Assembly (NCBI GenBank): GCA_965207565.1
Contig: CBDBMQ010000024.1
Span: 125,860-189,859 of the forward strand
Direction: 5' to 3'
Source of the DNA: Rhodothermales bacterium
GTDB lineage: Bacteria > Bacteroidota > Rhodothermia > Rhodothermales > Bin80
DNA length: 64,000 nt
Shown here: piece by piece, positions 1 through 56,960 of the stretch
How the letters are laid out: every line of letters starts with the position of its first letter
How positions within the stretch are numbered: position 1 is the stretch's first letter
The notes under the pieces: generated by a model
The model's input: only the letters and a program-made list of their open reading frames with translations
Databases searched by the model: none
Told to the model about the DNA's origin: nothing
Made by a program: the position numbers and the translations under genes

Positions 1-1361
1 AATTAATCCGGGATTCTACCTGCGCATGTTTGCGGCGCCGGTTCTTAAACTCCGGGGCGGATTCTCGCGCACGATCCTCTTTCGAGAGTTTTCCCTTCTT
101 GGGAAGAATCACATGCTTCAACCTTGACGTCAGTGCCTTCATGTTCGGCTTGGATGAATAGCCCCGATCAAAACTCATGGCGTGCACGTTCGGATAGGTC
201 TTCTTGCACTGATCCACTAAATCCACCGTGAGGTCTACATCACACTCGGTCCACATAATCTGCCACATCAGGATGAATCGATGATCATTCTCTATGATGG
301 AGACCGGAACCCCCAACTCGACCTTCTTCCCTCCACTCTTCCCCTTCTGAATCCAACGCGTATGGCGGGCATGCAGCGAATAGATCTTCTCATTGGAAGG
401 GATCTTTTCGCCCTTCACCAAACGGCGTTCCACTTGGTCATGAAGCGTCCAGGCCAGCTCAGAGGCCGATTCCAGACGCGATATCCACGCAGAGTTTGGA
501 TCCAGCTTCTCAATCTCTTGAAGAACCTGATCACATCGCTGGATGCGCCAGGTGCAAAGCAAAAGATAGCTCTGCACCGCTTCAAGGTTCTTGGATTTTG
601 CGTTCGTCTCCACAGCCCGGTACGCAGACTGGAGCGATCGCAATAGATGGTCAGCCTGACGCCAACCGGGAAGATCACAGTTCCCGTCCAGTTCGCACAC
701 CTCCCAGGCCTTTATAGTCTCCCTGAAAAGCAAGCGGATCGCATCACGTAACATGCTCGGTCGGAAACTGAACATTCGTTTCCACCACATACGAATCACA
801 GCGAGCCTCCATCGGGGCGTTGGGATCCTCCCCCAGTGCCTGCATCCCCACCTCCACAATGATCGGATTCAACTCCGCCCAAATCTCCTCGGTGATCAAC
901 GAAACATTATCAATGACCGTCTGCAATTCATACACATACCCGTCTCCAAATTCCGAATCGTCATGTTGTAACATCTGACGTAGTCGCCGATGTTCATTGG
1001 CCTCATCCACTAAGTGATCATAGTCCGTGTTCAGCGCCTGCTTCACAAGTGCCAATACAAGGATGCGCCAGTAGTGCATGCCCGGGCGCCCCTCGCGTTG
1101 ACGGGTCGTTTTTCCGATCTTCTGTCGAAGAATTGTGAGGATTTGTTCCAAGTGGAGTTTACTCTTCCAAATCTGTTGCAATGATCGGAGCACACTGGCC
1201 ATATCATGGCGGGATTTGGGGTTGATTTCTATCTGCTCAATCGGGATGACGCCAAAGGAAGGGGCAGGATCAAATTGGTGTCTCATAACAGGGAAAATGG
1301 CGATTTTGAAGGTTGAAGATTTTGCCCAAATTCGGGGATCAGTGCGCAAAAATGGACGCAA
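1..1361 (-). pseudogene. IS5/IS1182-like DDE transposase (DUF772-type N-domain). Frameshifted near 750-760 and runs off the left edge.
   Basis: ORF 744..1361 ends ...VETNVQFPTEHVT*. A second frame (ATG 754, open to position 1) continues MLRDAIRLL...HTRWIQKGKSGGKKVELG...SFDRGYSS...VILPKKGKLSKEDRARE...HAQVESRIN. These are typical IS5/IS1182 blocks. The two parts overlap in different frames. Confidence 0.7.
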
Positions 1362-1586
1362 TCGCCCCGGAATGAGCCTCTGGAATGGTTCTACGCTGCA
1401 AAATCTGAAAAATCGACGTTTTCAGAAAAAATCTTCGCACAGAATCCATTCCGTGTATTCAGACGGAAATACCACCCACAACGCTTCCTCGGTAGAATAT
1501 CAGTGCTGAACTACTATTTTCGGACAGGCACTATATATCGGTGCTTCCAATTTATCTGCCTTAAAATTGGCGGACTTGTTCGGCAA

Positions 1587-1709
1587 CGTTTTGTTTATTG
1601 CTGCACGATCCTAACCGTCTGAGAACCGGGCGGAACCACGACGGTGGTATCTGTGCCTCCCGGCCAGCTGACATGTACTTTTTCGATCTCACTGCGTGGA
1701 GCTAACAGG
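1587..1709. repeat. Direct repeat copy 1: orphan duplicate of the 3' end of the 5033..8656 gene
   Basis: Aligns base-for-base with 5025-5148 (4 substitutions and 1 indel by eye). Confidence 0.85.
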
Positions 1710-1779
1710 ATCGAAAACAAGGGAACTGCTATCTTTTTCACCGGCTGGCAAGCTATGGATAAGGTCTTGAAATCCCTGA

Positions 1780-1830
1780 GTGCGTATTCCGATCAAGTGG
1801 GACACTGAGTTGGAATACAATAGGACGCAC
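1780..1830. repeat. Palindromic element, copy 1 (imperfect)
   Basis: gtgcgtattccgatcaagtggg/cactgagttggaataca...acgcac. Shares the GCGTATTCCGAT...ATCGGAATACGC core with 4963-5005 and 62860-62923. Confidence 0.5.
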
Positions 1831-1946
1831 TTAATTGGTTTTCTGTAATGCTGAAAACATGTATCTGTCTGAACAGCGAAACCTTCAGTTCCTGCAACTG
1901 TATCTTTGCTTCGGCGTTGATCCGATCTTTATTTAACCGTGGACTC

Positions 1947-4106
1947 ATGGGCGTTGATATAATTAGAGGAACCAGCAAAAAGCCTGTGGCAAGCGATGCA
2001 TTGACTAACTCCATTTCCTCTCTTCGCGTGAACGGCTTTTTGTTTATCGGACACCCGATCATAGGGACATATGACGGGGGAAAGGCACTTGATGCTCTTT
2101 TGGTCTCCAAGGAGAAAGGTATTGTTGTCTTTGATCTGATTGAAGGAACCAACGAGGGAGATTACTGCTCACGCCAAGACAACTCCGCGAATAGGCTTGA
2201 GTCTCTGCTCCGGACACATAGTGAACTGATGCAACGCAGGAATCTCCTCATTCCTATTCATACCATTTCATTCGCACCAGCAATATCTGGAAAGAGATTG
2301 CCTGGAGAAGAAAACGATTGTCTTATAGCGAATTCAACCACCTTGCTGGAAAAGCTAGGCGGTTTAGAGCCATGGTGCGATGAAAGAAAGGAGGATATTT
2401 ATGGAAAATCCCTGTCAGTTTTACAGAATGTTTCAACTATCCGCAAAAGCACAAGAAGGAGAATTGTTAAGAACCCAGACTCGCTTGGAACCAAACTCCA
2501 GAACTTAGAAAATTCAATAGCGACCCTTGACCAACAACAAAACAGGGCCGTGATTGAAACCGTAGACGGTGTCCAGCGCATTCGCGGCCTTGCCGGCTCC
2601 GGTAAAACTATTATTCTGGCATTGAAAGCAGCCTACCTGCACATTCAACACCCCGATTGGCGAATCGCTGTTACTTTCTACACACGCTCTCTCAAGGAGC
2701 ATTTCCGGCAGCTTATTACGAGATTTACCCTTGCTCAAACTCATGAAGAACCGGACTGGAACACTCTGAAAATTTTAAACGCGTGGGGGGCAGCTGGTGG
2801 AACGGGCCGTGATGGCATCTATCATAAATTCTGCATGACGCATGGTGTGAAGTATTTTGACTTCAATGCGGCAAGAAAATTCGGGCAGGGAAAAGAATTT
2901 TCAGGCGCCTGTGAAGACGCGCTTCGCAATTGTGAGGGATTCAAAAATATTTACGATGTGATATTGGTAGATGAGGCGCAGGACCTCCCGCCAGAATTTC
3001 TGCGCATCTGCTATAATCTTCTGGGCGAAAAGAAGATGCTTATTTACGCGTATGATGAGTTGCAGAATCTGTCTGGAGAATCACTTCCTTCCCCAGGGAG
3101 AATCTTCGGCACCGACAGCGACGGATCTCCGTTGGTTACGTTCGATGAATCATCAAACAATGACATTGTTCTAGAAACGTGTTATCGTAACTCGAGACCA
3201 GTGCTCACCACCGCACATGCCCTTGGGTTTGGGATCTACAGGAACACAAGGAGACAAGACACATCCAGACTTGTTCAGATGTTCGACGATCCCCGATTCT
3301 GGAAAGACGTCGGATACAGGGTAAAAAAGGGCAATTTATCACTTGGCAGTCACGTAAGCCTGCACAGAACACCAGATACAAGTCCTAAGTTTCTTGAAAA
3401 CCATTCGCCTGTTGAAGAACTAATAAAATTCATCTGCTTCAATGAATCGCAGAAACAAACGGAATGGCTGGCAAACGAGATAAAAACCAATCTTGAGTCC
3501 GAGGAACTTCGACACGAAGATATTGTGGTCATTAACCCCAACCCTCTCACAACCCGTGCCAATGTCGGACCTATCCGCAGCTACCTTTTGGGAATGGATA
3601 TCAGAAACCACATTGCCGGCGTTGATACTGATGCAGATACTTTCTTTAAAGCTGAAAACTCAATTACCTTTACGGGTGTTCACCGTGCCAAGGGAAACGA
3701 AGCGGGAATGGTGTATATCATAAACGCACAGGAATGCTACTCCGGGACACTAACCGGACTGAATCTGGCAAAACTTCGCAACCAGCTTTTCACAGCAATT
3801 ACGAGAAGTAAGGCCTGGGTACGCGTACTCGGCATCGGCGATGGAATGAATGAATTAAAGGAAGAGTATGATCGTCTGCGATCAAACGATTTTCGGCTTG
3901 AGTTTGATTATCCAACTAGAGAGGAGATAGAGAATTTACGAGTGGTGCATCGAGACGTACCGAGGGAGGACATTGAACAGATTAAAGAGGACGGGAATCA
4001 CCTGTCCAGGCTGGTTGATAATATTGAATCCGGCAAATTTCATTTAAAAGACTTGGATGAAACTGTTGTGAGCAGATGGAAAGAATTGTTGGAAGTGGAT
4101 GAGTAG
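1947..4106 (+). CDS. Superfamily-1 (UvrD/AAA_30-like) helicase with an N-terminal NERD/PD-(D/E)xK-like region
   Basis: Walker A GLAGSGKT, Walker B VILVDEAQDL, then CYRNSRP, FTGVHRAKGNEA and LFTAITRSKAW. The N-terminus has ALDALLVSKEKGIVVFDLIEG. The track ORF starts at 1848; ATG 1947 is preferred because the first 33 residues are Cys/Ser-rich and unconvincing. Confidence 0.75.
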   Translation: MGVDIIRGTSKKPVASDALTNSISSLRVNGFLFIGHPIIGTYDGGKALDALLVSKEKGIVVFDLIEGTNEGDYCSRQDNSANRLESLLRTHSELMQRRNLLIPIHTISFAPAISGKRLPGEENDCLIANSTTLLEKLGGLEPWCDERKEDIYGKSLSVLQNVSTIRKSTRRRIVKNPDSLGTKLQNLENSIATLDQQQNRAVIETVDGVQRIRGLAGSGKTIILALKAAYLHIQHPDWRIAVTFYTRSLKEHFRQLITRFTLAQTHEEPDWNTLKILNAWGAAGGTGRDGIYHKFCMTHGVKYFDFNAARKFGQGKEFSGACEDALRNCEGFKNIYDVILVDEAQDLPPEFLRICYNLLGEKKMLIYAYDELQNLSGESLPSPGRIFGTDSDGSPLVTFDESSNNDIVLETCYRNSRPVLTTAHALGFGIYRNTRRQDTSRLVQMFDDPRFWKDVGYRVKKGNLSLGSHVSLHRTPDTSPKFLENHSPVEELIKFICFNESQKQTEWLANEIKTNLESEELRHEDIVVINPNPLTTRANVGPIRSYLLGMDIRNHIAGVDTDADTFFKAENSITFTGVHRAKGNEAGMVYIINAQECYSGTLTGLNLAKLRNQLFTAITRSKAWVRVLGIGDGMNELKEEYDRLRSNDFRLEFDYPTREEIENLRVVHRDVPREDIEQIKEDGNHLSRLVDNIESGKFHLKDLDETVVSRWKELLEVDE

Positions 4107-4111
4107 AAATC

Positions 4112-4780
4112 ATGTCATCACCTAACCAGGTTCGGGAGCAGATCAATAAACTCGTTACGTTTTTAGTAGAAAAAGGTCTTTCGAATGATCAGAATTTTGC
4201 TTTTCCGAAAGAATCCAAGGGGGAAACTGTTCAAATTATATTCCCAGGACGAGAACATTTGTCGGCTGCGTTAAAAGATCGAAATTACAGAGAAATTTAC
4301 AGGGATATAGCAAAAGAACGTGCGTACAATGCAAAAATGCTGGATGGCGCATTGATTCAGATGACCTATGAATTTATTAGTACTTCTCTTCAACGTCATC
4401 GCCTCGCGTTTTTCCCTTCGCCAGTTCTCGGAGAATTTCAACAAGATCCTGACATCTATCTTGATGATGAAATTTATGGAGATATAACTTCAAGGAACAT
4501 CGTTCCGTCTCCCTTGCGTTTTGACTACGACTCCAGAGAAGGTAAATACAAAGAACTGATTCATCCAAAATCCCATTTTTCGCTGGGTCAATATCCAAAT
4601 TGTCGTATTCCCGTGACTTCGCCGATGACTCCAGTGCGGTTTGTGGATTTTGTTTTAAGGAACTTCTATGATACTAAAGAAAATCGGTACGCCGACGACC
4701 TTCCAAGGGATAACTGTTCATTTGCTGAATCAATATTTTCGGCAGAGCGCAATATTGTTCACATTGTCGTTCCCACATAG
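4112..4780 (+). CDS. Helicase-associated 222-aa protein, function unknown
   Basis: Starts 5 nt after the helicase stop on the same strand. No motif recognised by eye. Confidence 0.6.
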   Translation: MSSPNQVREQINKLVTFLVEKGLSNDQNFAFPKESKGETVQIIFPGREHLSAALKDRNYREIYRDIAKERAYNAKMLDGALIQMTYEFISTSLQRHRLAFFPSPVLGEFQQDPDIYLDDEIYGDITSRNIVPSPLRFDYDSREGKYKELIHPKSHFSLGQYPNCRIPVTSPMTPVRFVDFVLRNFYDTKENRYADDLPRDNCSFAESIFSAERNIVHIVVPT

Positions 4781-4962
4781 AGAAAGAGCTTAGCCCAAGT
4801 TCACCATCTCGCCTGAGAGGATACTGATTTTCGGACCGATTCCCCCCTTATAATATACAGAGAACTTGGGCCAGCAACAAGACTGTCTTTTGGCTGAGAT
4901 GGTCAGTCGCGGTGTACCCCGTTTATGGGAAAAATTTGGACAATTTAGTTCGTTGGCTAAGT

Positions 4963-5005
4963 TGCGTATTCCGATGGAAGTGGTCCACTTCGATCGGAAT
5001 ACGCA
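4963..5005. repeat. Palindromic element, copy 2 (21-bp stem with 1 mismatch, 1-nt loop)
   Basis: tgcgtattccgatggaagtgg t ccacttcgatcggaatacgca. Lies between the convergent ends of 4112..4780 and 5033..8656. Confidence 0.8.
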
Positions 5006-5024
5006 GGAGACCTCTGTTCAGCAG

Positions 5025-5148
5025 CGTTTTGTTTATTGCTGCACGATCCTAACCGTCTGGGCACCGGGCTGAACCACGACGGTGGTATCTGTGCCTCCCG
5101 GCCAGCTGACATGCACTTTTTCGATCTCACTGCGTGGAGCTAACAAGG
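5025..5148. repeat. Direct repeat copy 2: the functional 3' end of the 5033..8656 gene
   Basis: Same sequence as 1587-1709. Includes the stop codon at 5033-5035. Confidence 0.85.
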
Positions 5149-8100
5149 GAGCAAGGCTGTTCTGACTCCAATACCCGCTTCCTGCAACGACAGCTGCCGC
5201 AGGGCCAAGCGAACCATCCCGATATTGTGCCCGCACATTGGCTCCGATGGTAAATGTATTCGCGTGTTCTGTCCGTAGTTCAACACGAAGACCAACGCCG
5301 GCAGATTGATTCTCAAAATGTACGACGGGCCCTGCATTTTGGGTCACTGCCAGATCCAGACGTCCGTCCAGATTGAAGTCAGCGGCTACGGATGCCCGCT
5401 GAGAGCCATAAATCCGAATCCCCGAGTGCTGTGCGAACTGTGGGACTAACTCGTGAGATTCATTTGCAAGTAGTAGCAGTCCTCGTCCACTATCCAGTCG
5501 GGGATAGCCCGAAGCAACTGCGAAGAAATTCTGACTCAGAAATAAATCTATTCTCCCATCGCCGTTGAAATCCCCCGCTACCGGTGCAAAGGCGGGCGAC
5601 CACTGAGCCTCAACCGCGAGCGGAACTACCTCATAGTGCGACTCCCTGTTCATGAACACGGTCGTCTGCCAGTGCGTGACTTCGTGATCAGCAGCTCCAG
5701 ATAATACAGAACCGAAGATGTCTTCTGCCGAACGCTCAGAGAATTCTCTATACGTTCGAACGTGCTGGCGCAAAATTGGCAGGGCATGCGTGAGCGTCTG
5801 AAAATCCCGTACCAATCCCAATGCATCCAGGTCGGGGGTCCACTGGACTTCGAGAAGATCCATGCTGCTGTTCTGGTCCAGATCACCATAATAAGCCCGA
5901 AGGGGGGTGTTCTGGTCATAGGGAACGTTTTGTCCCCAGTTGGTCACAACCAGGTCAAGCCTTCCGTCGCCATCAAAATCAGCCGGTGTAATCCCATTCC
6001 ACCACCCCACATAATCAGTGAGCCCCAAAGAGCGCGTCATGCGAACCAACTGCCCCCCCCCTCGGTTGTGGAATACCTGTACGGGCCCCCACATCATTGC
6101 AAGTGCGAGATCCGTCTGCTGATCACCATTGAGGTCCGCAGCGACGGCTCCGGATACGAGTCCCAGATTTTCGAACGGTGCGCTGAGCTCATCATCCCGT
6201 AGGAGCTCTTGATCGCGGATCCGATAGATGGTGCTGGTTGTAACTTGGGGGTATTGACCGGGAATAAAATGCCCCCCGACGAAGAGCTCCAAAGAACCAT
6301 CTCCGGTGAAATCCCCCAAGGCGAGCGGCCCAGGACTCTCTGACCCAAGCATGTAGGGAGTCCCCTCTCCGCTGAGTGACACCTGAAGAATCCGGGAAAG
6401 ATCTCCCGCTTCTTCTGGGGTCCGCTCATAGTTGCCTACTGCTGCCCATACGACTCCCGGTAGAGCAACTATTCCTGCATGATCCCCGGTCGAGGGGTTG
6501 CCTAGGTACTGCTTGGTTGCGAAGATTCCAGCATCGTTGACCAAGAGTTGCAATCGCTTCCCCTTCCCGCCTCCTAGAATCAGATCCTCATCCCCATCAG
6601 AATCTATGTCTACCGCAACCAACGCCGGCCCTCTCTGGCTGAGCCTATGCGGAAGCAGCGGCTGCCGGGCAAAATCCGCATAACTAGTTTCTTCATGCTG
6701 CAATCCGGTACTCAAGGCCTTGAATAAGGTCGGAGGAAGTTCCGAAGACACCTTGGGTTGAGGTGGTGGCTGATTAATCCAATACTCACTGTTTGGTATC
6801 ACTTCATCAACCCTGCTGAGTCCACCATCAGGCCAGTGTACCTCGATGACTGCACCGCTTGAATAAGCAAACGTGCGTGCTGCATCACTGGATGAAAGAT
6901 ACTCCCCGCCCGCAATGACCTCCTGATTCTGTGGCGGTAAGCTGTCACTGACGACACGTACGAGCGCACCAACACCTGTAGGGTTGGGGGGCAGTCCCTG
7001 GAGACGGACGAGGATCCGCTCGGCTTCTGCATCATTGCGAAATACCCCGACGGGGCCATCCAGTCGATTGATCACCAGATCCTGATCTCCATCTTCATCC
7101 AGATCGGCCAGTGCCATGCCGTGAGCTACATCCGGGTTCACCCCCAATCCCCAGCCCTGCTCAACCCGTTCGAATTGCGCATTCCCAAGGTTGCGGAATG
7201 CGATATTTGGTAGATCCAGGTCAGGAAAATCCAATAAAACCTCTCGCCAGAGGCGTCTGGAGGAACGAGCAGCAATCTGAGCATCTGCATCCATTGCATC
7301 GTATGCATGCCCGGTTGTGAGGAGTAAATCTGGCCATCCATCCAGATCCACATCGGTGAACACACTGCTCCATGTCCAGCCGGTTGCGGCAACGCCGCTC
7401 CAGCGGGCGATTTCGGCGTAGGTTGTATCCGCGCGATTGAGTAGCAGCATGTTCTGCATCTCCTGTGGGCGGGCGTGGATATCCCCCATGGTCAATACCT
7501 CGGGTGGGATCACAAAATGCTGTCTTTGCCGCTCTGAGTAGCCACTGCTCAACATATCCGCCAGAAAGAGATCTACATGCTCATCTGCATTGATATCTGC
7601 GGCTGCCACCGACATTGTTGACTGGCTTGTCTTTCGAAGTGCCAGTGTGGAGGCGGCTCTGAAGATACCATCTGCACTCCCGAACCAGAGAGCATCCGGA
7701 CTTTCGAAGTCATTGCACACATAGAGATCTGGGTACCCGTCCTGATTAAAATCCTGAGAGCGCACGGACAGCGTCCAGTACTGTGGCGCTTCGCTTAACG
7801 AGACTCCATTTTCATCCAAAAACAGCCCCTCTGTGAACGAACCTTCCGTAAAATTCCCTGCGCCATCATTAAAGAAGATTCGATCAGGTTCAGCAAGTTC
7901 GACCCGCATCAATCGACCTTCCTGGTGGATGAGTTTGTAATCCTTTGCCCAGTACTCACGCACAGCGAACGAGTCGGCGACCGGTTCTACAACACGTTCA
8001 AACGTAATCTCTTCCGGGGGCCAAACATCTTTGACCGTCGCTTCCTTATAGAACCCGACATACAGATCTAAATCCCCATCTGCGTCCATATCAGCCAAGG

Positions 8101-8656
8101 CAACCGAGGTAGCACCTCCAGATTGAGGAAGGTTTGCCCCTGTGGTATAATCTGTGAAATGCCCCGTGCCGTCATTCACGTACAACTGCACTCCACTTCC
8201 AAGTGAAGTCACAAAGAGATCCAGGTCCCCATCTGCATCAACATCAGAGAACGCTGTGCCAGTTGCTCTTGGATGAACAAGGCCTAAACCCGCCTGAAGT
8301 GTGATGTCCTGGAATTTCCAAGCCCCCAGATTGCGATGGAGTGTACTATGATGCTCCATCCCTGCCAAAAAAATATCAGGCAGGCTATCCCCATCCACAT
8401 CGCCAATGGCGACCCCCGATCCATTGACAACGTGCCGGTTGTCTACAAGAGCCGAAATGCTGATATGATTACTGAACGCAATTGCGTCGGGGATTTCTGT
8501 AAACCCTGTCCCCGTGCCAATGGGGGGACTCAGTGGACGCACCCGATACCCTTCGAACGAAGTCCAAGTACGCTCGGGCTCGGAGCTGCATCCCACAAAA
8601 AGAAACACACCGAGCAAAAATACACGCCAGACCATGCATGCGGAGCACCTGGGCAT
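5033..8656 (-). CDS. Secreted VCBS/FG-GAP repeat protein with ASPIC/UnbV C-terminal domain (CRTAC1 family)
   Basis: N-terminal signal with lipobox-like LFVGCSS. Many DxDxDGxxD(L/I) FG-GAP/VCBS repeats. C-terminus reads GANVRAQYRDG...GSGYWSQNS...VHVSWPGG. Confidence 0.85.
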   Translation of the reverse strand: MPRCSACMVWRVFLLGVFLFVGCSSEPERTWTSFEGYRVRPLSPPIGTGTGFTEIPDAIAFSNHISISALVDNRHVVNGSGVAIGDVDGDSLPDIFLAGMEHHSTLHRNLGAWKFQDITLQAGLGLVHPRATGTAFSDVDADGDLDLFVTSLGSGVQLYVNDGTGHFTDYTTGANLPQSGGATSVALADMDADGDLDLYVGFYKEATVKDVWPPEEITFERVVEPVADSFAVREYWAKDYKLIHQEGRLMRVELAEPDRIFFNDGAGNFTEGSFTEGLFLDENGVSLSEAPQYWTLSVRSQDFNQDGYPDLYVCNDFESPDALWFGSADGIFRAASTLALRKTSQSTMSVAAADINADEHVDLFLADMLSSGYSERQRQHFVIPPEVLTMGDIHARPQEMQNMLLLNRADTTYAEIARWSGVAATGWTWSSVFTDVDLDGWPDLLLTTGHAYDAMDADAQIAARSSRRLWREVLLDFPDLDLPNIAFRNLGNAQFERVEQGWGLGVNPDVAHGMALADLDEDGDQDLVINRLDGPVGVFRNDAEAERILVRLQGLPPNPTGVGALVRVVSDSLPPQNQEVIAGGEYLSSSDAARTFAYSSGAVIEVHWPDGGLSRVDEVIPNSEYWINQPPPQPKVSSELPPTLFKALSTGLQHEETSYADFARQPLLPHRLSQRGPALVAVDIDSDGDEDLILGGGKGKRLQLLVNDAGIFATKQYLGNPSTGDHAGIVALPGVVWAAVGNYERTPEEAGDLSRILQVSLSGEGTPYMLGSESPGPLALGDFTGDGSLELFVGGHFIPGQYPQVTTSTIYRIRDQELLRDDELSAPFENLGLVSGAVAADLNGDQQTDLALAMMWGPVQVFHNRGGGQLVRMTRSLGLTDYVGWWNGITPADFDGDGRLDLVVTNWGQNVPYDQNTPLRAYYGDLDQNSSMDLLEVQWTPDLDALGLVRDFQTLTHALPILRQHVRTYREFSERSAEDIFGSVLSGAADHEVTHWQTTVFMNRESHYEVVPLAVEAQWSPAFAPVAGDFNGDGRIDLFLSQNFFAVASGYPRLDSGRGLLLLANESHELVPQFAQHSGIRIYGSQRASVAADFNLDGRLDLAVTQNAGPVVHFENQSAGVGLRVELRTEHANTFTIGANVRAQYRDGSLGPAAAVVAGSGYWSQNSLAPLLAPRSEIEKVHVSWPGGTDTTVVVQPGAQTVRIVQQ

Positions 8657-8668
8657 CCAGAGCAGGTG

Positions 8669-9157
8669 CTACATTACCCCTGCCTTGAACTCATTCTCAA
8701 GGTATTTGGCAATCTCATCCAGGTAAGCCTCTCGCTCGGCCGTGATCATTACCGGCTCCCAGTTCCCGCCCATTGAGAGTCGGGCCTCAAACTCGGCTTC
8801 CATACGTGAGGAAAACGTGCTCGCGTTCCCTGCTGCACGATTGCGCGGACGCGCATTGACAAAGATGCGTACCCTGGCCGCCACATACCCGGCAGCCTGT
8901 TCATCCGCGAAGGTGACTACATCTTTCCATGATGTTTCCAGGCGTACATCCTCGGGGGTGTCAACTTCTCGATTCATGCGGTATCCGTATCTGGTAAGCA
9001 GGGCATCCTGGGCAGTTGAGACAATATGCCACCGTGCGGAAGTTCCGAGATTGTAACGAAACGTGCTGTCACGAGCCCGCTCACCGTCGGCACCCGGTCC
9101 AGAACAGGCGCCCACAAGCAAGACACAGCATAAAATCCAGTAGATTGATGGTTTCAT
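8669..9157 (-). CDS. Small lipoprotein, function unknown
   Basis: MKPSIYWILCCVLLVGACSGPG signal/lipobox from the internal ATG at 9157. Same strand as the Sus pair. Confidence 0.55.
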   Translation of the reverse strand: MKPSIYWILCCVLLVGACSGPGADGERARDSTFRYNLGTSARWHIVSTAQDALLTRYGYRMNREVDTPEDVRLETSWKDVVTFADEQAAGYVAARVRIFVNARPRNRAAGNASTFSSRMEAEFEARLSMGGNWEPVMITAEREAYLDEIAKYLENEFKAGVM

Positions 9158-10898: not shown

Positions 10899-13800
10899 CT
10901 AAAATTGGAATTCTAATTTCGCCCGAATCGTCCGATAGGGCGGATAACTGAAATTGTCTACACGATAGAGTGTCGGATCGGCCCCAGATCCTACCTCAGG
11001 ATCAAATCCAGAGTAGCTACTGAAGGTGAGTAGATTGCGCCCAATGATACTCGCCGAGAGAGAATGTAACATATTGCCGAAGACACGAGAAAGTTGCTGA
11101 CGATTGAGTGTGTACCCCACCGAAAGCTCACGCAGCTTCAGATACGTTGCATCTTCTACATAATGACTGTTTCTCCCCGTCGCATCGTAGAGGACTTCGT
11201 AGTACGTGGTGGACTTCTTCATGCTTTCTTCCTTTCCTCTCTGGTCCTGATCTGCATTCCGGCCATCACGGTATCCCCATTGCTTGGTGAAATTATAGAC
11301 ATCGCCTCCAATCTGGGCCCCCCACAGCATATAGAGTCTGAATCCTTTGTAGCGGAAGGTCGTGTTGACTCCGAGGCTGAAGTCCGGAAGCGCATTTCCA
11401 ATTTGAACCCGATCTGTCTCGTTCACCTCGTCGTAGTACTTAATGGGAATTCCCCATCGGTAACTGTCATCTCCAACTGTGACATTCGTCCCCCACAGAT
11501 CGTCTTCCCCACCTATGACACCGTCTGGGCCTGCGCCACTGGTGTAGCTGTTACCTTGACCAACGGCGACCACATATCCATCATCATTGACATCAAAGAA
11601 GCTTGCGTCAACTCCGGCCGGAAGCCTGGAGAGACCTGTAATGAATTCATTCCCATACATCCCCCCCAGGATTTCGCCTTCGCGGAAGAAAAATAGGCTC
11701 CGGGGGCCACCCAAATAGGGGTTCGAATTGAATTCAGATATCTCTTGGCGGGTGCGGTCAAACGTGACCCCGACCTCGAAATCCATATCCCGTGAATTGT
11801 AGACATTCGCATTCACGCTGGCTTCAATGGTGTTGGATGTCAGATCTCCTGCATTACTCCACTGGCTCCCAAACCCGAAGTACCCGGCGAGTGGAACGCC
11901 AAGGAGCAGATCCTCGACCTTTGTGTCGGCATACACCAACTCAATGAATATCCGGTCGAGAACTCCCACATCCAATCCAAACTCCATTTCTGTCTGCAAT
12001 TCCGGCTTCAGGAACGCATTCCCAAGGGTTGATTTGGAGAGTTGACCATTGCTCAGGGTTAGCGTCTCGTACTGCGCCTGGAATCTAGGACGGCCACCGG
12101 CGGTTCCGATGGACGCGCGCAGCTTCAATTCAGTGATCGGGTTGTCCGCTGGCCAGAATGATTCCTCGGAAACCCGCCATGCAGCACTTCCGCGGAAATA
12201 GGGTTGCCAGCGCTCTTCCGCTCCAAAGAGGGAACTGCCGTCATAACGGAAGAAGGCGTCCACTATATATTTATCCATGTAGTCCAACCCTGCGGTCGCG
12301 TAATACCCTTCAGCTATAACGGTCTCGGTGTAGTTCGCGAAGTCTCTTGAGCCACTATCGCAGTCTTCCTCTCCACAAAACTGCTTAACATTGGAGAGAT
12401 CTTTAATCCCCAACGTCAAAAGATTGCTCCCAACAATGCCCTCCGAAAAATAGTCGGAATTTTCTATCTGGGCTTTCAGTTGACCGCGGGTCGTGAAATC
12501 TCCAAACCGTTTATTTAGAGACACGGTCAAGTCATAGTTGATTGCCTCACTAATCTCGTTGCTCCGCTCAATCCGACCACTATTGATAGGTGATGCGCCG
12601 ATCGATGCAAACCCAACGTCATAGAATTCCGTTGCGTCTCTATCTGAACGGTCATAACTGAAATTGCTCTCAAGACTCAACCAATCCAGCGGACTCCAAC
12701 GTGCACGGAAATTGCCAAGCAGGCGTGATCGTTGCCGACCAATATCTGCATTCTGAATTACGTATAGCGGATTTTCCTCTACCGAAAGTGGATCCGCCTG
12801 AATTTTTAGCTCACCCAGTTCATCCGTTGCAGACAGGCTTACCAATGGATTCGTAAACATCAGGCCAAAGAATGGATTGAAGAATGAAGACGAACCTGGT
12901 ACCCCAGTGAGCCCATCATTTGATGTCTGGGAATAAAACCCCGAGGTTGAAATGCTCAGGTTTGGCCGAATGCGATGGTCAAGATTCACGCGAAAGCTTC
13001 TCCGTTTCATCCCGTCAAGTCCCTGAAGCGGTCCCTGCTCAGCAACATTGGTGAAAGACGCCAAGAAGTTTGTTTTTGGACCATTTTGGCTTACACCAAC
13101 ATAATTTGTCCAAGTATCGCCGGGATCAAACAATTCCTCAAACGCATTGTGCAGCGTACCCTGATACGGATTATCAAAAAAAGCCACCCCATTAGCGGTT
13201 TTTTCCTGCACCACTCCTGGGCCATATCCATTGGCCAAACAGGTAGGGCAGGTATTGACTGCACCCTCTCTATTCAGGAAGTTCCCCGATGCATCAACTT
13301 GTAGATCGTGGGATGTATTGGCTTGCAGGGTTTTTGCTACACTGCCAACCCCGTATTCATTGCGGACCGTCACCCGTGTCTGATTCAAGGGGGTCGCTGT
13401 ACCACGCTGCGTTGTGATGTTGATCACACCATTCTGGGCTCGTGAGCCATAGAGCGATGAAGCAGCAGCTCCCTTAACAATCTCAATATTTTCAATATCC
13501 AGTGCATCAATGTCAACCTGGTTCGCACCGAGAACGACTCCATCCACAATGTAGAGTGGCTGATTACTGCCGGTGATACTGGTCGCACCGCGTAGCCGCA
13601 CAGAAACGGAAGCACCTGGCGCGCCACTGCCTGCCTGAACGGCAACTCCGGCAACCTTGCCCTGAATGGACGCAACCGGATTTGATGCAGGTGCCAGGGT
13701 TATATCCTCACTACTTACCTGACTTACTGTGAAAGCCAGTTTCTTCCTCGGCGTTGCTTCAGCGACCCCGGTGACAACCAAATCATCCAGTTGGAGGAAA

Positions 13801-14111
13801 TCCACGGCCAGAACGAAGTCCTCCGTCATGATGCTCTCACTGACTGTAATTGCCCGCACCTGCTCCACAAACCCAACATAACGAGCGGTCAACTCCAAGG
13901 TTTGCCCAACATGCTCAGCAGGAATCGGAAACGTATATGTCCCATCAAGATCGGTGGATGCACCAATCACTAATGACTCTACGAGCACATTTGCTCCGAT
14001 GAGCGGCTCGCCTGTGTCATCTGTAACCGTTCCGGTAATTACGCTCTGAGCACTTGCCAATCCCGGGAACAGCAACATGCAAAGAACGAGGAAAGAGTGT
14101 CTTTTCTTCAT
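10899..14111 (-). CDS. SusC/RagA-family TonB-dependent outer-membrane transporter
   Basis: MKKRHSFLVLCMLLFPGLASAQ signal. CarboxypepD_reg-like ITGTVTDDTGEPLIGANVLVE. Plug region IEIVKGAASSLYGSRAQNGVINITT. Ends in a terminal Phe (LEFQF). Start chosen at ATG 14111, not the track start 14327. Confidence 0.9.
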   Translation of the reverse strand: MKKRHSFLVLCMLLFPGLASAQSVITGTVTDDTGEPLIGANVLVESLVIGASTDLDGTYTFPIPAEHVGQTLELTARYVGFVEQVRAITVSESIMTEDFVLAVDFLQLDDLVVTGVAEATPRKKLAFTVSQVSSEDITLAPASNPVASIQGKVAGVAVQAGSGAPGASVSVRLRGATSITGSNQPLYIVDGVVLGANQVDIDALDIENIEIVKGAAASSLYGSRAQNGVINITTQRGTATPLNQTRVTVRNEYGVGSVAKTLQANTSHDLQVDASGNFLNREGAVNTCPTCLANGYGPGVVQEKTANGVAFFDNPYQGTLHNAFEELFDPGDTWTNYVGVSQNGPKTNFLASFTNVAEQGPLQGLDGMKRRSFRVNLDHRIRPNLSISTSGFYSQTSNDGLTGVPGSSSFFNPFFGLMFTNPLVSLSATDELGELKIQADPLSVEENPLYVIQNADIGRQRSRLLGNFRARWSPLDWLSLESNFSYDRSDRDATEFYDVGFASIGASPINSGRIERSNEISEAINYDLTVSLNKRFGDFTTRGQLKAQIENSDYFSEGIVGSNLLTLGIKDLSNVKQFCGEEDCDSGSRDFANYTETVIAEGYYATAGLDYMDKYIVDAFFRYDGSSLFGAEERWQPYFRGSAAWRVSEESFWPADNPITELKLRASIGTAGGRPRFQAQYETLTLSNGQLSKSTLGNAFLKPELQTEMEFGLDVGVLDRIFIELVYADTKVEDLLLGVPLAGYFGFGSQWSNAGDLTSNTIEASVNANVYNSRDMDFEVGVTFDRTRQEISEFNSNPYLGGPRSLFFFREGEILGGMYGNEFITGLSRLPAGVDASFFDVNDDGYVVAVGQGNSYTSGAGPDGVIGGEDDLWGTNVTVGDDSYRWGIPIKYYDEVNETDRVQIGNALPDFSLGVNTTFRYKGFRLYMLWGAQIGGDVYNFTKQWGYRDGRNADQDQRGKEESMKKSTTYYEVLYDATGRNSHYVEDATYLKLRELSVGYTLNRQQLSRVFGNMLHSLSASIIGRNLLTFSSYSGFDPEVGSGADPTLYRVDNFSYPPYRTIRAKLEFQF

Positions 14112-14647
14112 GAGATCTTCTGTATTTGTGAGTGGAATACTTCCTAAGGTGAGGACTACACAGGGTCCTCTGGAAGGATACATAAGTTTCTTAAAGATAA
14201 GAAAACTTTCATACAACTGCACATAAACACCTAAGCAATACCGATTGATCCCTCTGCAACGGAGGTTCTCCCCAGCCCTGCCTTGTACGTAACAAAGAAA
14301 ACCCGAAAAATGGGTCTTTTTCCGCATGTTTAGTGGGTGGTCATAGACTCCAAAATCAGGCTATTGGTTTGAGCATGATGCGGGTCTCATGTCCATGCTC
14401 TGCGGGTTTTTAGGATTGATTTCTTTGATTTGACCTTGAAATAATCTGGTCGAAGGTTTCTGAAGAATTTTTGTGCAAGCCTGGGAGGGGGGATTGCGTG
14501 ATTTCGCGTTTCAGGCCCCACAGGGCCGATTGTCGCGTGAGACCTGCACCTGTTCGCTAAAGATTTCCTTCATTTTTTCAACCATGCGAGACACGATGAA
14601 CCGGTTCCCGACCTTGCGCGCTGTGTCCGATATTCAAATTAATCCAT

Positions 14648-14671
14648 AAAATTCATGATGAATAATATGGG
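14648..14671. repeat. Solo IS1380-type right-IR-like relic
   Basis: aaaattcatgatgaataatatggg versus aaaattcgtgatgaataatatggg at 21430-21453. Confidence 0.4.
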
Positions 14672-14842
14672 ATGATGTATTCAAGGAGCTACCTACGGCC
14701 TCTTATTTTTACGCAATCAGCGGGATAATCATGCGCTGGTCAGCGTATGGTCCTACCAAATCAAGCGTTGTAACTCCATGTTAAATGGCGCTACGGGTCG
14801 ACAATCAACCTCATACGCGGCATTCCAGGGCCAATATGGCCC

Positions 14843-15220
14843 TTACTGTGAGAGCGGTTCTCGATCTATACGATCAAATGATGAGTATGTCAAAAAAGAG
14901 ACTTCTTGGGAGGGCACTTGCAGAACAAGTATCCCCTTAGAGGTCGTTCTAAGCAGTTGAATGTTATTTTCGGCCTCGCCTGTGGTGTAGACGATACGAT
15001 ACTCTCCACTTTGTAGCGCCAGATCGCGTGTGGCCTCCGAGTACCCGTTCAAGAAGAAAACAGCCGCCAATAGAGGGCCTAGTTGTAGCCCCAACGCCCC
15101 CGCAGTAGACAGCTTGACAGAAACCATCGTGCGTCCAACCAACCACGGAGAGAAGAGCATCCAGCATCCCATGGCAAAAAATATCCATCCCGTGGTCGTG
15201 GGGCTGTCAGCCCATATCAT
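14843..15220 (-). CDS. Hypothetical protein with hydrophobic N-terminus
   Basis: ORF only. Overlaps the upstream ORF by 14 nt. Lies between two solo IR relics. Confidence 0.3.
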   Translation of the reverse strand: MIWADSPTTTGWIFFAMGCWMLFSPWLVGRTMVSVKLSTAGALGLQLGPLLAAVFFLNGYSEATRDLALQSGEYRIVYTTGEAENNIQLLRTTSKGILVLQVPSQEVSFLTYSSFDRIDREPLSQ

Positions 15221-15590
15221 AACAAATCCCCCTATAAGGGGTCATCCCGGAAGGGATGACGTATTTCACGGTGTATCTTACCGTGGTACGTAAGAACTTC
15301 GTGATCCGGGAAGGCAGAGGCCTTTGAATGGTCTCCTCATCAGACCTGATTCCCTCTGCGCGCCCATTCGCTATAAACGGCACCAGCAATAACGCCACAA
15401 TGACATACAATACAAACTCAGGCAGCCAACGTATGGTGTTGCTTGTATAGTCAGTCGGAGAGCTCAGCACAATAAATTCTTCTCCAAGCACACTATAATA
15501 CCCCCATTCTCGCAAGGCCGACGCAACTAAAGTCGCGACCGTCAACGTAGCAATTGTTGTCGGGACATTCCACCGAGAAAATTTGGTCAC
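15207..15590 (-). CDS. Hypothetical membrane protein
   Basis: ORF with two or three hydrophobic segments. No motif recognised. Confidence 0.3.
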   Translation of the reverse strand: MTKFSRWNVPTTIATLTVATLVASALREWGYYSVLGEEFIVLSSPTDYTSNTIRWLPEFVLYVIVALLLVPFIANGRAEGIRSDEETIQRPLPSRITKFLRTTVRYTVKYVIPSGMTPYRGICYDMG

Positions 15591-15699
15591 CGTACTGTCG
15601 TTTTAGCCTTAGATTCCTGTCCGTCTGTATCTGGTTTACACAGAGCACAGACCCAAGTTGCATAGCGAGGTATATAATCTCCTTTGATTTTCCCATTAG

Positions 15700-15737
15700 C
15701 CCATAATATTCATCTCAATTTAGCAGTTTCGTATTGA
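15700..15737. repeat. Solo IS1380-type left-IR relic
   Basis: cccataatattcatctcaatttagcagtttcgtattga versus cccataatattcatcttagtttagaagtttcgtattga at 17557-17594. Confidence 0.5.
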
Positions 15738-15767
15738 GGGTCTTCCCCTTTTTAAGGGTTTGGGGGT
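15738..15767. repeat. ISL3-type terminal IR relic
   Basis: gggtcttcccctttttaagggtttgg resembles the ISL3 IRs at 34935 (reverse complement ggggcttccccttttcaagtgggtt) and 42998. Confidence 0.4.
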
Positions 15768-16382
15768 GTAGAGTCAGGGGGCGGTGCGGTGCCCGTAGGG
15801 TCCGGTGGCTTATCCGTTGCTTTCGCTCCAGGCCTCAGTCCGGCTCCCTTAGGTCCGTTTCCGCCCCCTGCTCTCCGAACCGGGCGTGCGGTTTTCCCGC
15901 ACCCGGCTCTCCAGGTGGATCATGCGGCTCGTGCTCGGACCACCATACTCCGTTTCGTGATCTCCGTAATGCAGGGAAATGCCCCTTTCCCGCGAATATC
16001 ACGAACGTTGCATCGTGGGCTGGCTGGCCTGTTTACGCCCAGACAGCTCCGTCTCTTTGACGTCCCCTTCACTTGTGCATGTGCAGACGCCGGTCGCTCC
16101 GACGTGCTCCGGCTTCTATATCATTGCCGGCGCCCTTTGACCTTTTGTCTGCCCTCCTAAAACGCGGAGGGTCGGCACCCACATTACTAGTTTCGGGGCC
16201 TGCTCAACCTTCACTCGCGTTCCGGCCTGCATGCCTGCTGAATCGCCTACGCGATCCGTTTATCCAAAGTGCTTCAATTCATGTCGTTACCTCCATAAAT
16301 CGCTTTGGTCGCTTCCAACTGGAACGACAGTTATTGGGTGGGATTCGCACCCACCAGGAAAAAGCGCCTTTCCACGGCGCAC
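15768..16382 (-). mobile_element. ORF-less group II intron (about 615 nt), family 1
   Basis: Minus strand begins GTGCGCCGTGGAAAGGCGC (16382). It has a canonical domain V GAGCCGGGTGCGGGAAAACCGCACGCCCGGTTC (15877-15909) and ends ...GACTCTAC (15768). Homologous along its length to the ribozyme parts of 36425-38304. No RT ORF. Confidence 0.7.
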
Positions 16383-16443
16383 ATGTAGAAATTAGTTGGT
16401 TAAAGGAAGCGTGATATAACCCTTTCAACTTATATCACATCCC

Positions 16444-17400
16444 ATGAACTCTCACCATTTTTCTACTCCAGAGTCTACTCCACGAGGTAGTACTTCGTCT
16501 CAGGAACTCCACTTGGAGCTTGTACGCCATTACGCGGATGTGCTGCGAATGTTGACCGAGCGTATTCCCGCCCCTGATCTGCCCGCTACGCCTACACCAC
16601 CACCGGTACAGGAGACTCCCGAGGCCCGATTGGAGGAAACTCCTGCGTCCTGGGAGGAGGCGTCTGGATACCTGCATGCTCGTGATTTCAGACGAGAAGA
16701 GGTGGTGCACCTGTGGTTGCAGTTCTGCTACGTGCTGGGCACCCATGTGCTGGTCGGTTTAGCCGTTACGATCCAGGGTTACCGGCGTATCGCGGGGGTA
16801 ATTGAAAGCACGCCGCAGGACCAGGAATGTATGGAAGGATTTCTATATGACCTGGATGCCCGTGGGTTGTCTGCCGATCGGAGGTTGTTGTGTACGGTGC
16901 CTGGTGGAGTTGCCCTGCCCAATGCCGCACGCACGGTTTGGGGGACTCGTGTAGCTCTGCAGCGCTGTCTCAACACAACGATGGCCGAGGTGGTGAATGG
17001 ATTGGCGGAGGTGGACGCGAGGCGGTTTAGACATCGCCTGCAACATGCATGGCATACGTGTGATGCCGCGCAGACGCAACAGGCATTGGAGGAGATTGCC
17101 AGAGACCTGGATCAGGAGAATCGGTCAGTTGCGCGCGTGTTGCGGCAACATATGGATCAAACCGTAACCCTGCAACAAACCGGTATGCTGCCCCAGATCG
17201 ACCGGGGACTGCGCGTATTGAGCTATCTGAATACGCTGATGTCCCGGGTTCGTCCCGTGATTCCTGCCGGTCCGGCCCATCAACGTGTCCCGCGTCTGTG
17301 TGCTGGATTGCTGGAGCTTGAACCCCAGCTGCGCCGTGTAGCTCATGCTACGTATCTTCCTGCATTACGCAAGTCTCTCACTACCCTTCATGCAAACTAA
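16444..17400 (+). CDS. IS256/Mutator-like transposase paralogue lacking the DDE residues (gene A)
   Basis: Collinear with gene B, but LWLQFCYVLG replaces IAISLDGKTL, LLCTVPGGVAL replaces LVLIDGAKGL, and SYLNTLMS replaces TTNTIENV. Has a Pro-rich N-terminus. Confidence 0.55.
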   Translation: MNSHHFSTPESTPRGSTSSQELHLELVRHYADVLRMLTERIPAPDLPATPTPPPVQETPEARLEETPASWEEASGYLHARDFRREEVVHLWLQFCYVLGTHVLVGLAVTIQGYRRIAGVIESTPQDQECMEGFLYDLDARGLSADRRLLCTVPGGVALPNAARTVWGTRVALQRCLNTTMAEVVNGLAEVDARRFRHRLQHAWHTCDAAQTQQALEEIARDLDQENRSVARVLRQHMDQTVTLQQTGMLPQIDRGLRVLSYLNTLMSRVRPVIPAGPAHQRVPRLCAGLLELEPQLRRVAHATYLPALRKSLTTLHAN

Positions 17401-17556
17401 TCATCCAATCATGCCTATCAACGCCAAACCCCAAAACCATGAAGAACCCCTGACCTATGAGCAATGGTCGTGCCAATATCCCGAATATTCAGCTGCATTG
17501 CTTCAATCGGAGCGGAATTCCGCGGATATTCTTGAGTTGGCCTGTATGCTCATTGA
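17390..17556 (+). pseudogene. IS256-family transposase gene B, 5' segment (interrupted by IS1380)
   Basis: ATG 17390 overlaps the gene A stop (ATGCAAACTAA). The frame joins exactly to 21459 once IS1380 and one TSD copy are removed. Confidence 0.7.
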
Positions 17557-17756
17557 CCCATAATATTCATCTTAGTTTAGAAGTTTCGTATTGATCAACG
17601 TACGGGGAGCCTTCCCCTGCCATATTCGTTCTATTCATTGGGCGATTTACCCCGTTTTTCGTGGATTTTGATCGAATAAACCCGTGTTTTCGTCCTGAAT
17701 CAAGTCTCCCGACCTGTTTAAGAATCATCTACTCATTTCACCCTGAAGGTGATCCC

Positions 17757-18101
17757 ATGTCCCAGTCTTCTGAGCCTCTTTTTGTGCTTCCCTTCAACCA
17801 GTCAATTCGGATCAAATCGGCTAGTCGCAACCATACGACTTCGGACGCGGGCGCATTTTTGTTGCGGTCGGTGATTGATCGAACCGGAATCCTCGACTTT
17901 TTGACCGATCGACTGCACGATCCTCGGGATCCACAGCGTACCCGCTATCCTTTGTCTGAATTGCTTTTGCAGTGGCTGCTTCAGTTGATGCAGGGCCGGA
18001 GTTCGTTGTGGACGGATGCGCTCAGTCGGGATGCGGCCTTTAGTGTGTCCACCAGCACGAGTCGGACTCCCTACCATTTTACCAAATCTAAAACGGGTTA
18101 A
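17757..18101 (+). pseudogene. IS1380 transposase, N-terminal fragment
   Basis: TSDAGAFLLRSVIDRTGILDFL...YPLSELLLQWLLQLMQG...LSRDAAF is a typical IS1380 N-terminus. Cut off by the IS110 insertion. Confidence 0.7.
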
Positions 18102-19890: not shown

Positions 19891-19900
19891 GGGTGATGGG

Positions 19901-21138
19901 GTGGTCGGATCGGATCGTACGTTGGCATCGCAGCCCACCATGTCCCGCTTGGTGGGTCTGCTCGGCATGGTTAAGAATCTGGTTCACTTGAAGGCAGCGC
20001 TTCTGAAGGTGGGGATGGAGTATATGCTGGTTCAAAACGGTGGACGGCGGCGCGATGAAGTGGTCATTGATGTGGATGCGATGCCCATGGACGCACACGG
20101 CAACCAGCTTGGCAGCAAGTATCATGGGCATTATAAGCGAACCATCTTCCTTCCCCTGATTGCTTCGTGCGGGGAGACCGGGGATGTGCTCGGGGCGCAA
20201 TTGCGCCCCGGAACTCAGCGCGAGGTCACCGATTGCGAGGACTTCATCGTTCCCATCGCCCATGCGGTGCGCCAGCATGTCGCCGACCAGGTCATTGTCC
20301 GTATGGACGCCGGCTTCAATAGTGGTGCGTTGTGTGCACGACTGGAGACCGAAAATATTGGCTATCTCATGCGTCTACGCAAGAACAAGACACTGGAGAA
20401 AATGGCCGCAAAGTACGTGAAGGATCGCCCGGTGGAGGATATGACCTGCATTGAGTTGACGTATGGTGCGCAGTCGTGGGAATGTACTCGTCGGGTGGTA
20501 TTGGTGATCAAGTCGCGTCCTGGAGAGCTCTATGACAGGGTCTATTTTTTGGTGACCAATCTTGACGCAAAGATGTATCCAGGGCAGAAGTTGGTCCCCA
20601 TGTACAGTCAACGCGGGAAGGCGGAGATGCATCAGGGCGAGATGAAAATCTCCAGCAGCGCATCATTGTCGTCCTCTCCACGCCCCAAGTCGCATTACCG
20701 TCAGAGACCGATTGAGCGTACATACGAAGTGGATCCAGATGCGGAGGTCGGCGCAGAGAATGATGTGCGCCTTCAGATCTTCATGCTGGTCTACCAGATT
20801 CTTCACATCAGTCGATGCAACTTGCATAGTCCGCCTCCATCGTTGGATGAGACGCCATCGTCTGAAAAGACTCCACCGGCGTCGACGCAATGTGCCGAGG
20901 GGCTGTGCTGGACGAATCAACGGGGGGCGCCGTGGAGACTGACTCCCCGGATCTCGATAGGGAAGAATCTCACATGCACATTCGCCTCTTCCGACTGTGT
21001 GTGCTGAAGGTCGGTGCAACCATGGCACGTCATGGCCGCTATGTAACCTTTTATATCGCCCAGTCAGCAGTGCAGGCCTGGGAGCGTTTCTTGAAACACT
21101 TTCAGCAGTTGCAATGGCATACCGTACCGGAATACTGA
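19901..21138 (+). pseudogene. IS1380 transposase, central and C-terminal parts (frameshifted)
   Basis: DRTLASQPTMSRL...VVIDVDAMPMDAHGNQLGSKYHGHYKRTIFLPL...LRPGTQ...VRMDAGF. The C-terminal LFRLCVLKVGATMARHGRYVTFYI is in another frame (20890..21138). Confidence 0.7.
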
Positions 21139-22587: not shown

Positions 22588-22591
22588 CCAA

Positions 22592-39286: not shown

Positions 39287-39295
39287 TAGCTCAAC

Positions 39296-50610: not shown

Positions 50611-50661
50611 ATGTACTGCTACAGTAAGGTGATCTAATCTTTGACGCTTGGGAGGAATGTT

Positions 50662-56000: not shown

Positions 56001-56049
56001 CAGGTGCTAAAACGCATCAAAACGGAGCGACCCCCAGTAATCCAATTGC

Positions 56050-56958: not shown

Positions 56959-56960
56959 TC

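Follow-up and report, generated by a model that had tools for sequence, protein, structure and literature searches.

A stretch of 64,000 nucleotides (nt) from a Rhodothermales bacterium (assembly GCA_965207565.1, contig CBDBMQ010000024.1, positions 125,860 to 189,859 of the forward strand), referred to here as the window, carries close to its left edge a two-gene cassette that encodes a UvrD-like helicase and a DUF2290 protein. The cassette adjoins the 3' end of a gene for an FG-GAP/VCBS and ASPIC/UnbV protein (gene 1), and at its other end stands a second, orphan copy of that same 3' end. The locus was compared with seven relatives that bear the cassette, namely L001, which is the chromosome of a different species, and L033–L038, six contigs from five different ENA assemblies (the siblings), and with two relatives, L042 and L003, in which the site is empty. 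The gene that follows gene 1 in most relatives is called gene 2. From left to right, the following features are found.

1–1536, minus strand: insertion sequence (IS) of the ISNCY family, cut by the window edge; its transposase lies in two frames, an N-terminal open reading frame (ORF) running from 1286 to 744 and a continuation from 760 to 1.
1537–1576, no strand: 40-nt remnant of the ancestral spacer between gene 1 and gene 2, in the empty-site form; it aligns with L042 and L003 and is absent from L033–L038.
1577–1709, minus strand: orphan copy 1, made up of the last ~113–115 nt of gene 1, the stop codon (1595–1597) and 18 nt downstream.
1710–1780, no strand: non-coding end of the cassette; similarity to L001 and L033–L038 begins exactly at 1710.
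1781–1830, no strand: degenerate copy of a dispersed palindrome, upstream of the helicase gene (DNA fold −11 kcal/mol, z −3.0).
1848–4106, plus strand: superfamily 1 (SF1) UvrD-like helicase, a 752-amino acid (aa) ORF; PADLOC PDLC03002, Pfam UvrD_C_2 and UvrD-helicase.
4112–4780, plus strand: DUF2290 partner of 222 aa; Pfam PF10053 (E 5e-51) and PADLOC PDLC02999 (E 1.2e-89, full length).
4963–5005, no strand: near-perfect palindrome of 43 nt, with 21-nt arms that are 95% complementary and a 1-nt centre, between the convergent DUF2290 gene and gene 1.
5015–5147, minus strand: copy 2, the functional 3' end of gene 1 (stop codon 5033–5035) with 18 nt downstream.
5033–8656, minus strand: gene 1, encoding an FG-GAP/VCBS and ASPIC/UnbV protein of 1207 aa (domains FG-GAP_3 and UnbV_ASPIC), downstream of SusC/SusD-like genes.

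The initial annotation described near-identical direct repeats at 1587–1709 and 5025–5148 that included one indel. The repeats are real, but both had been started 10 nt short on the left: a repeat search returned 131 nt at 1577–1707 and 5015–5145 that are 95% identical, with six mismatches and no gap, and a MAFFT alignment agreed. The indel sits just beyond the right end (AACAGG versus AACAAGG). The two copies are spaced 3438 nt from start to start, and comparison of 1577–1709 with 5015–5147 gives seven mismatches in 133 nt, at positions 1582, 1586, 1622, 1624, 1632, 1676 and 1708. One 30-mer of the repeat is present in the window in exactly two places, where 0.00 would be expected. As had been proposed, copy 2 is the true end of the 1207-aa gene and contains its stop codon and final 37–38 codons, and copy 1 is an orphan in which the same 38-codon frame stays open with no gene body attached. 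Downstream of its stop codon, copy 1 has the ancestral GCCGAAC shared by L001 and L003, in contrast to the GCTGAAC of copy 2 and the siblings. Copy 2 is 98.5% identical to the matching segment of the siblings. An exact 30-mer of the repeat had no match in the genome-contig collection, nor had a 33-mer in the metagenome-contig collection.

Between the repeats there are only two genes, the helicase gene and that of its 222-aa partner, as originally annotated. The helicase matches the PADLOC profile PDLC03002 ('Helicase') with an E value of 1.6e-291 over profile positions 2–705 of 707, and its two Pfam matches exceed their cut-offs. Because its homologues are ~719 aa long and the PADLOC alignment begins at residue 36, translation probably starts at the ATG at 1947, which gives a protein of 719 aa. 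Since both sequence criteria and the gene arrangement agree with those of the Helicase+DUF2290 anti-phage family (presumably the system that DefenseFinder names 'Rst_HelicaseDUF2290'), the pair is, as judged from its sequence, a member of that family. Such a pair of ATP-dependent helicase and DUF2290 protein, which came from the variable spot of a P4-like satellite, blocks phage T7 (Rousset et al. 2022, PMC9122126). Anti-phage protection has been established solely with the Klebsiella system, in E. coli as the expression host (PMC9122126), and later reviews list the system with its role unexplored.

Searches of the literature and of the PDB returned no mechanistic paper and no solved structure for the helicase and DUF2290 pair, and a PDB sequence search with the two proteins gave no match. 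The helicase had no match in the metagenome-contig or viral-contig collections, and DUF2290 had none in the phage collection. Exact-protein look-ups of the window helicase, gene 1, the transposase ORF and P0123 found none on record. A single-sequence AlphaFold model of DUF2290 reached a mean predicted local distance difference test score of 38.8 and was not used, and a scan for sigma-70 promoters and terminators returned nothing above chance. The GC content of the cassette is 0.385–0.477, compared with 0.50–0.58 in the ASPIC gene, and the cassette is absent from most relatives; the pair is thus accessory cargo, in agreement with the initial annotation.

The cargo occupies a spacer that varies among relatives. 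Gene 1 orthologues were identified in 32 loci, almost all of them labelled as Rhodothermales metagenome-assembled genomes, and in most loci gene 1 is followed on the same strand by a paralogous ASPIC gene, gene 2. Estimated from coordinates, the spacer between the two is roughly 50–160 nt in L004–L006, L008, L009, L011, L014, L016, L017, L019 and L020; in L042 it is 322 nt. The helicase cassette occupies it in the window, L001 and L033–L038. Other cargos are three small ORFs of 108, 155 and 100 aa in L002 (13828–14902), a 1718-aa protein in L021 (13939–19095) whose C terminus resembles, by eye, a secretion sorting domain, and, in L039–L041 (L039 9685–13434), a 207-aa ORF with a DUF5128 protein and an IS110 transposase. 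These comparisons show the spacer between the tandem paralogues to be a variable spot, empty in many relatives and filled by at least four cargos. Gene 2, with everything that lies past it in the siblings, is absent from the 64-kb window, and either lies to the left of the window or was lost.

All seven cassette-bearing relatives hold the cassette in the same place, and in every one of them similarity to the window ends at 1709/1710. Across 1710–9000 the siblings are 97.9% identical to the window, unbroken through the cassette and gene 1. Read on the gene 1 strand, the relatives continue as ...CCCTTGTTTTCGAT, then GGCTTGAATGGG..., the upstream region of gene 2 and gene 2 itself, with about 75 nt past the breakpoint that are unlike the window. 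On the minus strand the window reads ...TTTTCGAT up to the breakpoint and CCTGTTAGC... beyond it, the latter being the gene 1 tail, where the relatives have ...TTTTCGAT followed by GGCTTGAATGGG.... Gene-tail copies were counted in 42 loci, and a second copy was found in none of them, the seven cassette-bearing relatives included. The idea that the relatives retain a decayed second copy after the cassette was rejected, as local alignment gave a score of 17 against a shuffle mean of 16.2.

Beyond the breakpoint, the window matches the empty sites. Read from 1709 to 1537, it aligns end to end with the gene 1 tail and spacer of L042 (83.7% identity) and L003 (83.2%), values near the core identity of 82.5% between the window and L003. 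The initial annotation had anticipated an empty site, and one is present in both L042 and L003, where the sequence seen after copy 1 comes immediately after the gene tail. It had placed the flank at 1362–1586; of this, only 1537–1576 is ancestral spacer, and 1–1536 is an insertion sequence. The window leaves both empty-site relatives at 1536/1537, where it enters this element. L043, a contig from a related sample, starts at window position 1533, as expected for a repeat boundary. The terminal 23-mer of the IS has a single occurrence in the window. The transposase, annotated as IS5-like and frameshifted at 1–1361, outside the repeats, does lie in two reading frames, split at a conserved F-P-T motif; it matches NCBIfam NF033593 (E 1.4e-37) and so belongs to ISNCY rather than IS5.

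L043 itself (ENA ERZ27263417 k119_73667; 3.1 kb) consists of the ISNCY N-terminal part (743–1533) joined to sequence corresponding to window 17557–19876. The junction falls exactly at the frame break of the IS (window 743), and a 38-nt sequence at the boundary recurs at window 15700–15737. The junction could reflect a different IS copy or a rearrangement.

Identity was then compared along the locus. Between the window and the sibling L035 it is uniform at ~98% through the cassette and gene 1, which led us to reject a recent import of the cassette into the window relative to the siblings. Between the window and L001 it climbs, from 83–87% over the SusD region through about 92% for gene 1 to about 96% for the cassette. 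L001 and L035 are 86.8% identical to the left of the cassette and 95.1% identical across the cassette and 2.4 kb of gene 2. Because the higher identity runs through the cassette into gene 2, the cargo appears to be exchanged between lineages along with the genes on either side, through ordinary homologous recombination and not as a self-contained element with ends of its own.

Two ISs flank the L001 cassette. One (13810–15912) carries an 8-nt target duplication, TTGTTTCT, and stands between the palindrome and the DUF2290 gene at the equivalent of window 4872–4880; the other interrupts gene 2 (21803 onward). The two are unrelated, and a composite transposon was therefore rejected as an account of the L001 cassette.

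The reading that we favour, with a probability of about 0.6, is that the duplication results from one-sided illegitimate recombination between cassette-bearing and empty versions of the locus, the cargo being a known defence pair in a variable spot. The group contains both versions. What the cargo is, that its spot is variable, that an empty site exists and where the single breakpoint and the IS boundary lie are shown by the sequences; the mechanism and its direction are inferred. Cassette-bearing DNA (gene 1 tail, palindrome, DUF2290, helicase, ...TTTTCGAT) would have been joined at 1709/1710 to the empty version, entering it 113–115 nt before the resident gene 1 stop codon. Because the join precedes that stop, what would survive as the orphan is the tail of the resident gene with its trailer of 18 nt and a further 40 nt of spacer. 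Gene 1 would have served as the homologous anchor and the far end would have been illegitimate, so that one non-homologous junction could account for everything. A circularised fragment that inserted by a single homologous crossover would be an alternative route to the same product. An ISNCY element in the resident spacer may have removed the nearby homology on the right-hand side, and an illegitimate far end would therefore have been favoured. As for direction, an empty genome may have received the cassette, or a genome with the cassette may have taken up an empty-plus-IS segment.

Several observations weigh against this reading. The join at 1709/1710, the single breakpoint, has 0 nt of microhomology; the only microhomology nearby is a 9-mer, TCCCTTGTT, which lies 8 nt inside the cassette side and matches the copy-2 allele of gene 1. 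The junction is seen in assembled sequence only, and the duplicated structure is present in one genome only. The DNA to the left of the IS falls outside the window, so that neither the gene 2 continuation nor which version was donor and which recipient is visible. Finally, copies 1 and 2 differ at 6 of 131 nt, somewhat above the ~2% divergence between window and siblings (P about 0.06), and copy 1 may thus derive from a strain less closely related than assumed.

Alternatively, the ISNCY element may have moved, by transposition or rearrangement, and taken with it 173 nt of its old neighbourhood, namely the spacer remnant and the gene 1 tail. The orphan directly adjoins the IS end at 1536/1537, IS elements and group II introns are abundant in the genome, and, because L043 joins ISNCY to a different region (window 17557–19876), the element does seem to take part in rearrangements. 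We nevertheless regard this as unlikely: the junction at 1709 does not resemble an IS end by eye, and landing in the very locus from which the carried flank derives is expected of homology-driven events, not of transposition. The left end of the IS and any target duplication fall outside the window. More generally, no terminal inverted repeats with a short target duplication, as would mark a transposon or IS, were found at the boundaries of the insert, where the duplication is 131 nt.

It is quite unlikely that the structure is an artefact of assembly, in which two co-existing versions of the locus, one with the cassette and one empty with the IS, were joined one after the other close to the end of a contig, giving a false duplication. 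Only the window sequence shows the structure, which lies within 1.7 kb of the window edge, beside a multi-copy IS where contigs of related samples break (L043 at 1533), and the DNA evidently comes from an uncultured population that contains strain variants. Yet no k-mer that could mislead an assembler is common to the two sides of 1709/1710, and copy 1 with its flank forms a coherent empty-site version of the locus. Because the copies differ at 6–7 positions, they are not an identical repeat that was collapsed or expanded.

The initial annotation read the repeats as an attL/attR footprint and noted a copy of one palindromic element near each end of the cassette. Such a copy is indeed present at each end, 10 nt from copy 2 (4963–5005) and 73 nt from copy 1 (1781–1830). 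The former folds as DNA with −20.6 kcal/mol (z −7.5) and is a short form of a 65-nt element at 62859–62923; the latter shares GTGGGACACTGA with a further copy at 51833–51860. L001 carries the 65-nt form at the same place, downstream of gene 1. When aligned with the empty sites, the left palindrome starts at the start of the inserted segment, and the right one, that on the side of copy 1, lies ~150–170 nt inside it. No match to the palindrome was found in the viral-contig collection.

More distant cassettes occur in other loci, L044 and L048, with helicases 64% and 77% identical to that of the window; these share about 100 nt upstream of the helicase gene with the window and have neither flanking repeats nor palindromes. 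The palindromes were considered as the cassette's own ends and rejected in that role, as they are absent from L044, L048 and the empty sites and present elsewhere in the window. Because the L044 and L048 cassettes carry none, the palindromes are best assigned to the genome of the lineage and not to the cassette. The copy at 51833–51860 is just downstream of a SocA/Panacea-domain pair (50641–51628), and that at 62859–62923 is upstream of a PARIS-like pair. All four window sites adjoin defence or toxin-antitoxin modules, although four are too few to test an association.

Under the attL/attR reading, a small non-autonomous integrative element, consisting of the cassette and a 131-nt attP, would have entered the 3' end of gene 1 and supplied a replacement end, with an integrase acting in trans. 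The direct repeats do flank the cargo exactly, the cargo has a lower GC content than its surroundings, L042 and L003 supply an attB-like empty site, and the same gene pair, bounded by pdif sites in two Acinetobacter plasmids, offers a precedent for a unit that lacks a recombinase. The empty site is, however, equally predicted by homologous or illegitimate insertion. In seven relatives this cassette occupies the identical position with the repeat present once, and the sequence that follows it is conserved but differs from that of the window; since, in addition, the right palindrome lies inside the inserted segment and the palindromes are dispersed, the footprint is not supported. Moreover, the junction of cassette and gene tail (the 23-mer TTGTTTTCGATCCTGTTAGCTCC) was seen nowhere else, cassettes 64–77% identical occupy other loci without flanking repeats, and none of the other cargos at this spot comes with a duplicated gene tail. 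No integrase or recombinase lies between the repeats, as had been noted from the start, and none was found among the 45 window ORFs of at least 150 aa that were scanned with Pfam (10899–14327, 56050–56958 and 56961–57623 were unscanned). Taken together, we regard integration of this kind as improbable.

The Acinetobacter examples are two small plasmids, pSSA3_1 and an A. pittii plasmid, represented by L050 (NZ_CP020587.1, 2199–5154) and L051 (NZ_CP077305.1, 2661–5701). In both, the pair is bounded by inversely oriented pdif (XerC/D) sites, and its pdif-bounded neighbours are established modules of this type, BrnT/BrnA and, in one plasmid, tet(39). The helicase and DUF2290 pair thus looks like a pdif module in these plasmids, and because it is so bounded in both, the pair can evidently form a recombinase-less module elsewhere. 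A literature search found no paper that describes the pair as a pdif module, and its status as such may interest those who study Xer-mobilised modules. The Acinetobacter pdif consensus has no match in the window, and the same pattern does find the sites in both plasmids; a lineage-specific Xer site could differ. That the window cassette is itself a recombinase-less mobile module, either leaving through the 131-nt repeats as a 3.4-kb circle and re-entering empty sites by a single crossover, or belonging to exchangeable defence and toxin-antitoxin cassettes marked by the palindromes for a host recombinase acting in trans, is very improbable. If true, the palindrome version would represent, for Bacteroidota, a counterpart of the pdif modules that carry the same gene pair in Acinetobacter.

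The remainder of the window holds further defence and mobile genes. Two PARIS-like pairs lie at 59810–62010 and 38435–40618 (both minus strand). In each, an AAA_15/AAA_21 ATPase precedes a DUF4435 protein, and PADLOC AriA (E 2.2e-26) and AriB (E 1.6e-16) match the first of the two pairs. Other defence-type genes are a weak SIR2-like ORF at 35053–36264 (plus), a C-5 cytosine methylase at 45655–46623 (plus) and a type II methyltransferase-like ORF at 63214–63972 (minus). Rfam returned five group II intron matches, all on the minus strand (15768–15911, 16215–16356, 38138–38278, 48600–48823 and 49450–49673), two of which are near-identical D1–D4 segments 850 nt apart, and a split reverse transcriptase/maturase ORF lies at 36508–37824.

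A mobile-element block at 14600–25000 breaks synteny with L003; its transposases are of the Mutator family (16444–17400 and 21574–22587), IS110 (18274–19560) and DDE_Tnp_1_4 (19901–21007), and AAA_13/AAA_23 ATPases are encoded at 22592–24802. On the plus strand, 52837–57623 carries type IV secretion or conjugation-like genes, including an 807-aa TraG P-loop/VirB4-like protein and a T4SS (type IV secretion system) protein, beside a toxin-antitoxin pair, which suggests the remnant of a conjugative element in the right part of the window.

Under the favoured reading of one-sided recombination, the window would capture a rare intermediate, in which one end of an exchange was resolved illegitimately and the cassette was left bracketed by 131-nt repeats. 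Through RecA-type recombination between these repeats, exactly the 3,438-bp unit could be lost while gene 1 stays whole. For uncultured Rhodothermales, the case also illustrates where a published defence system resides and how it appears to be exchanged.

Among known systems, e14 and phage 21, which occupy the icd gene of E. coli, are examples of prophage-like elements that enter a protein gene at its 3' end and bring a replacement end with them; elements of this type encode their own integrase and, as far as is known, always show both copies. The window resembles them in that a near-identical copy of the 3' end flanks the insert, with the orphan copy at the far side, and in both cases the target gene is intact because of that flanking copy. 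It differs in that no integrase was found here among the 45 window ORFs scanned, and seven relatives carry the cargo with a single copy.

The likeness to pdif modules lies in a small cargo without a recombinase, the same gene pair and, in the window cassette, a palindrome near each end. The window palindromes, however, have 21-nt arms and a 1-nt centre, not the 11-6-11 form, the right one is displaced from the boundary of the insertion, and the empty sites have no such site.

The cargo shares the architecture of the Helicase+DUF2290 system (Rousset et al. 2022), a UvrD-like SF1 helicase followed after a gap of 5 nt by DUF2290, and its proteins match both system-specific PADLOC profiles over their full length. 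Whereas that system was first found in a Klebsiella P4-like satellite, the window pair is chromosomal, comes from Rhodothermales and is known from sequence alone, with no phage or satellite genes near it.

Homology-facilitated illegitimate recombination has been described for natural transformation in Acinetobacter and Streptococcus pneumoniae. In the classical cases recipient DNA is usually deleted and the join has 3–10 nt of microhomology. Under the favoured reading, the window would share with them foreign DNA beside a homologous anchor, a non-homologous far join close by and a single breakpoint. It departs from them in that 131 nt are duplicated and the join has no microhomology.

Chromosomal defence hotspots between conserved core genes have been described for the pan-genomes of E. 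coli and Pseudomonas. The Rhodothermales locus differs in that its flanking genes are tandem paralogues and that, out of four cargo types, a single one represents a recognised defence system. It is similar in that a fixed spacer between conserved genes is empty in many relatives, holds at least four cargos and has no mobility gene tied to the cargo, and its identity profile fits exchange along with the flanks. The finding agrees with current views of defence-island turnover and leaves them unchanged.

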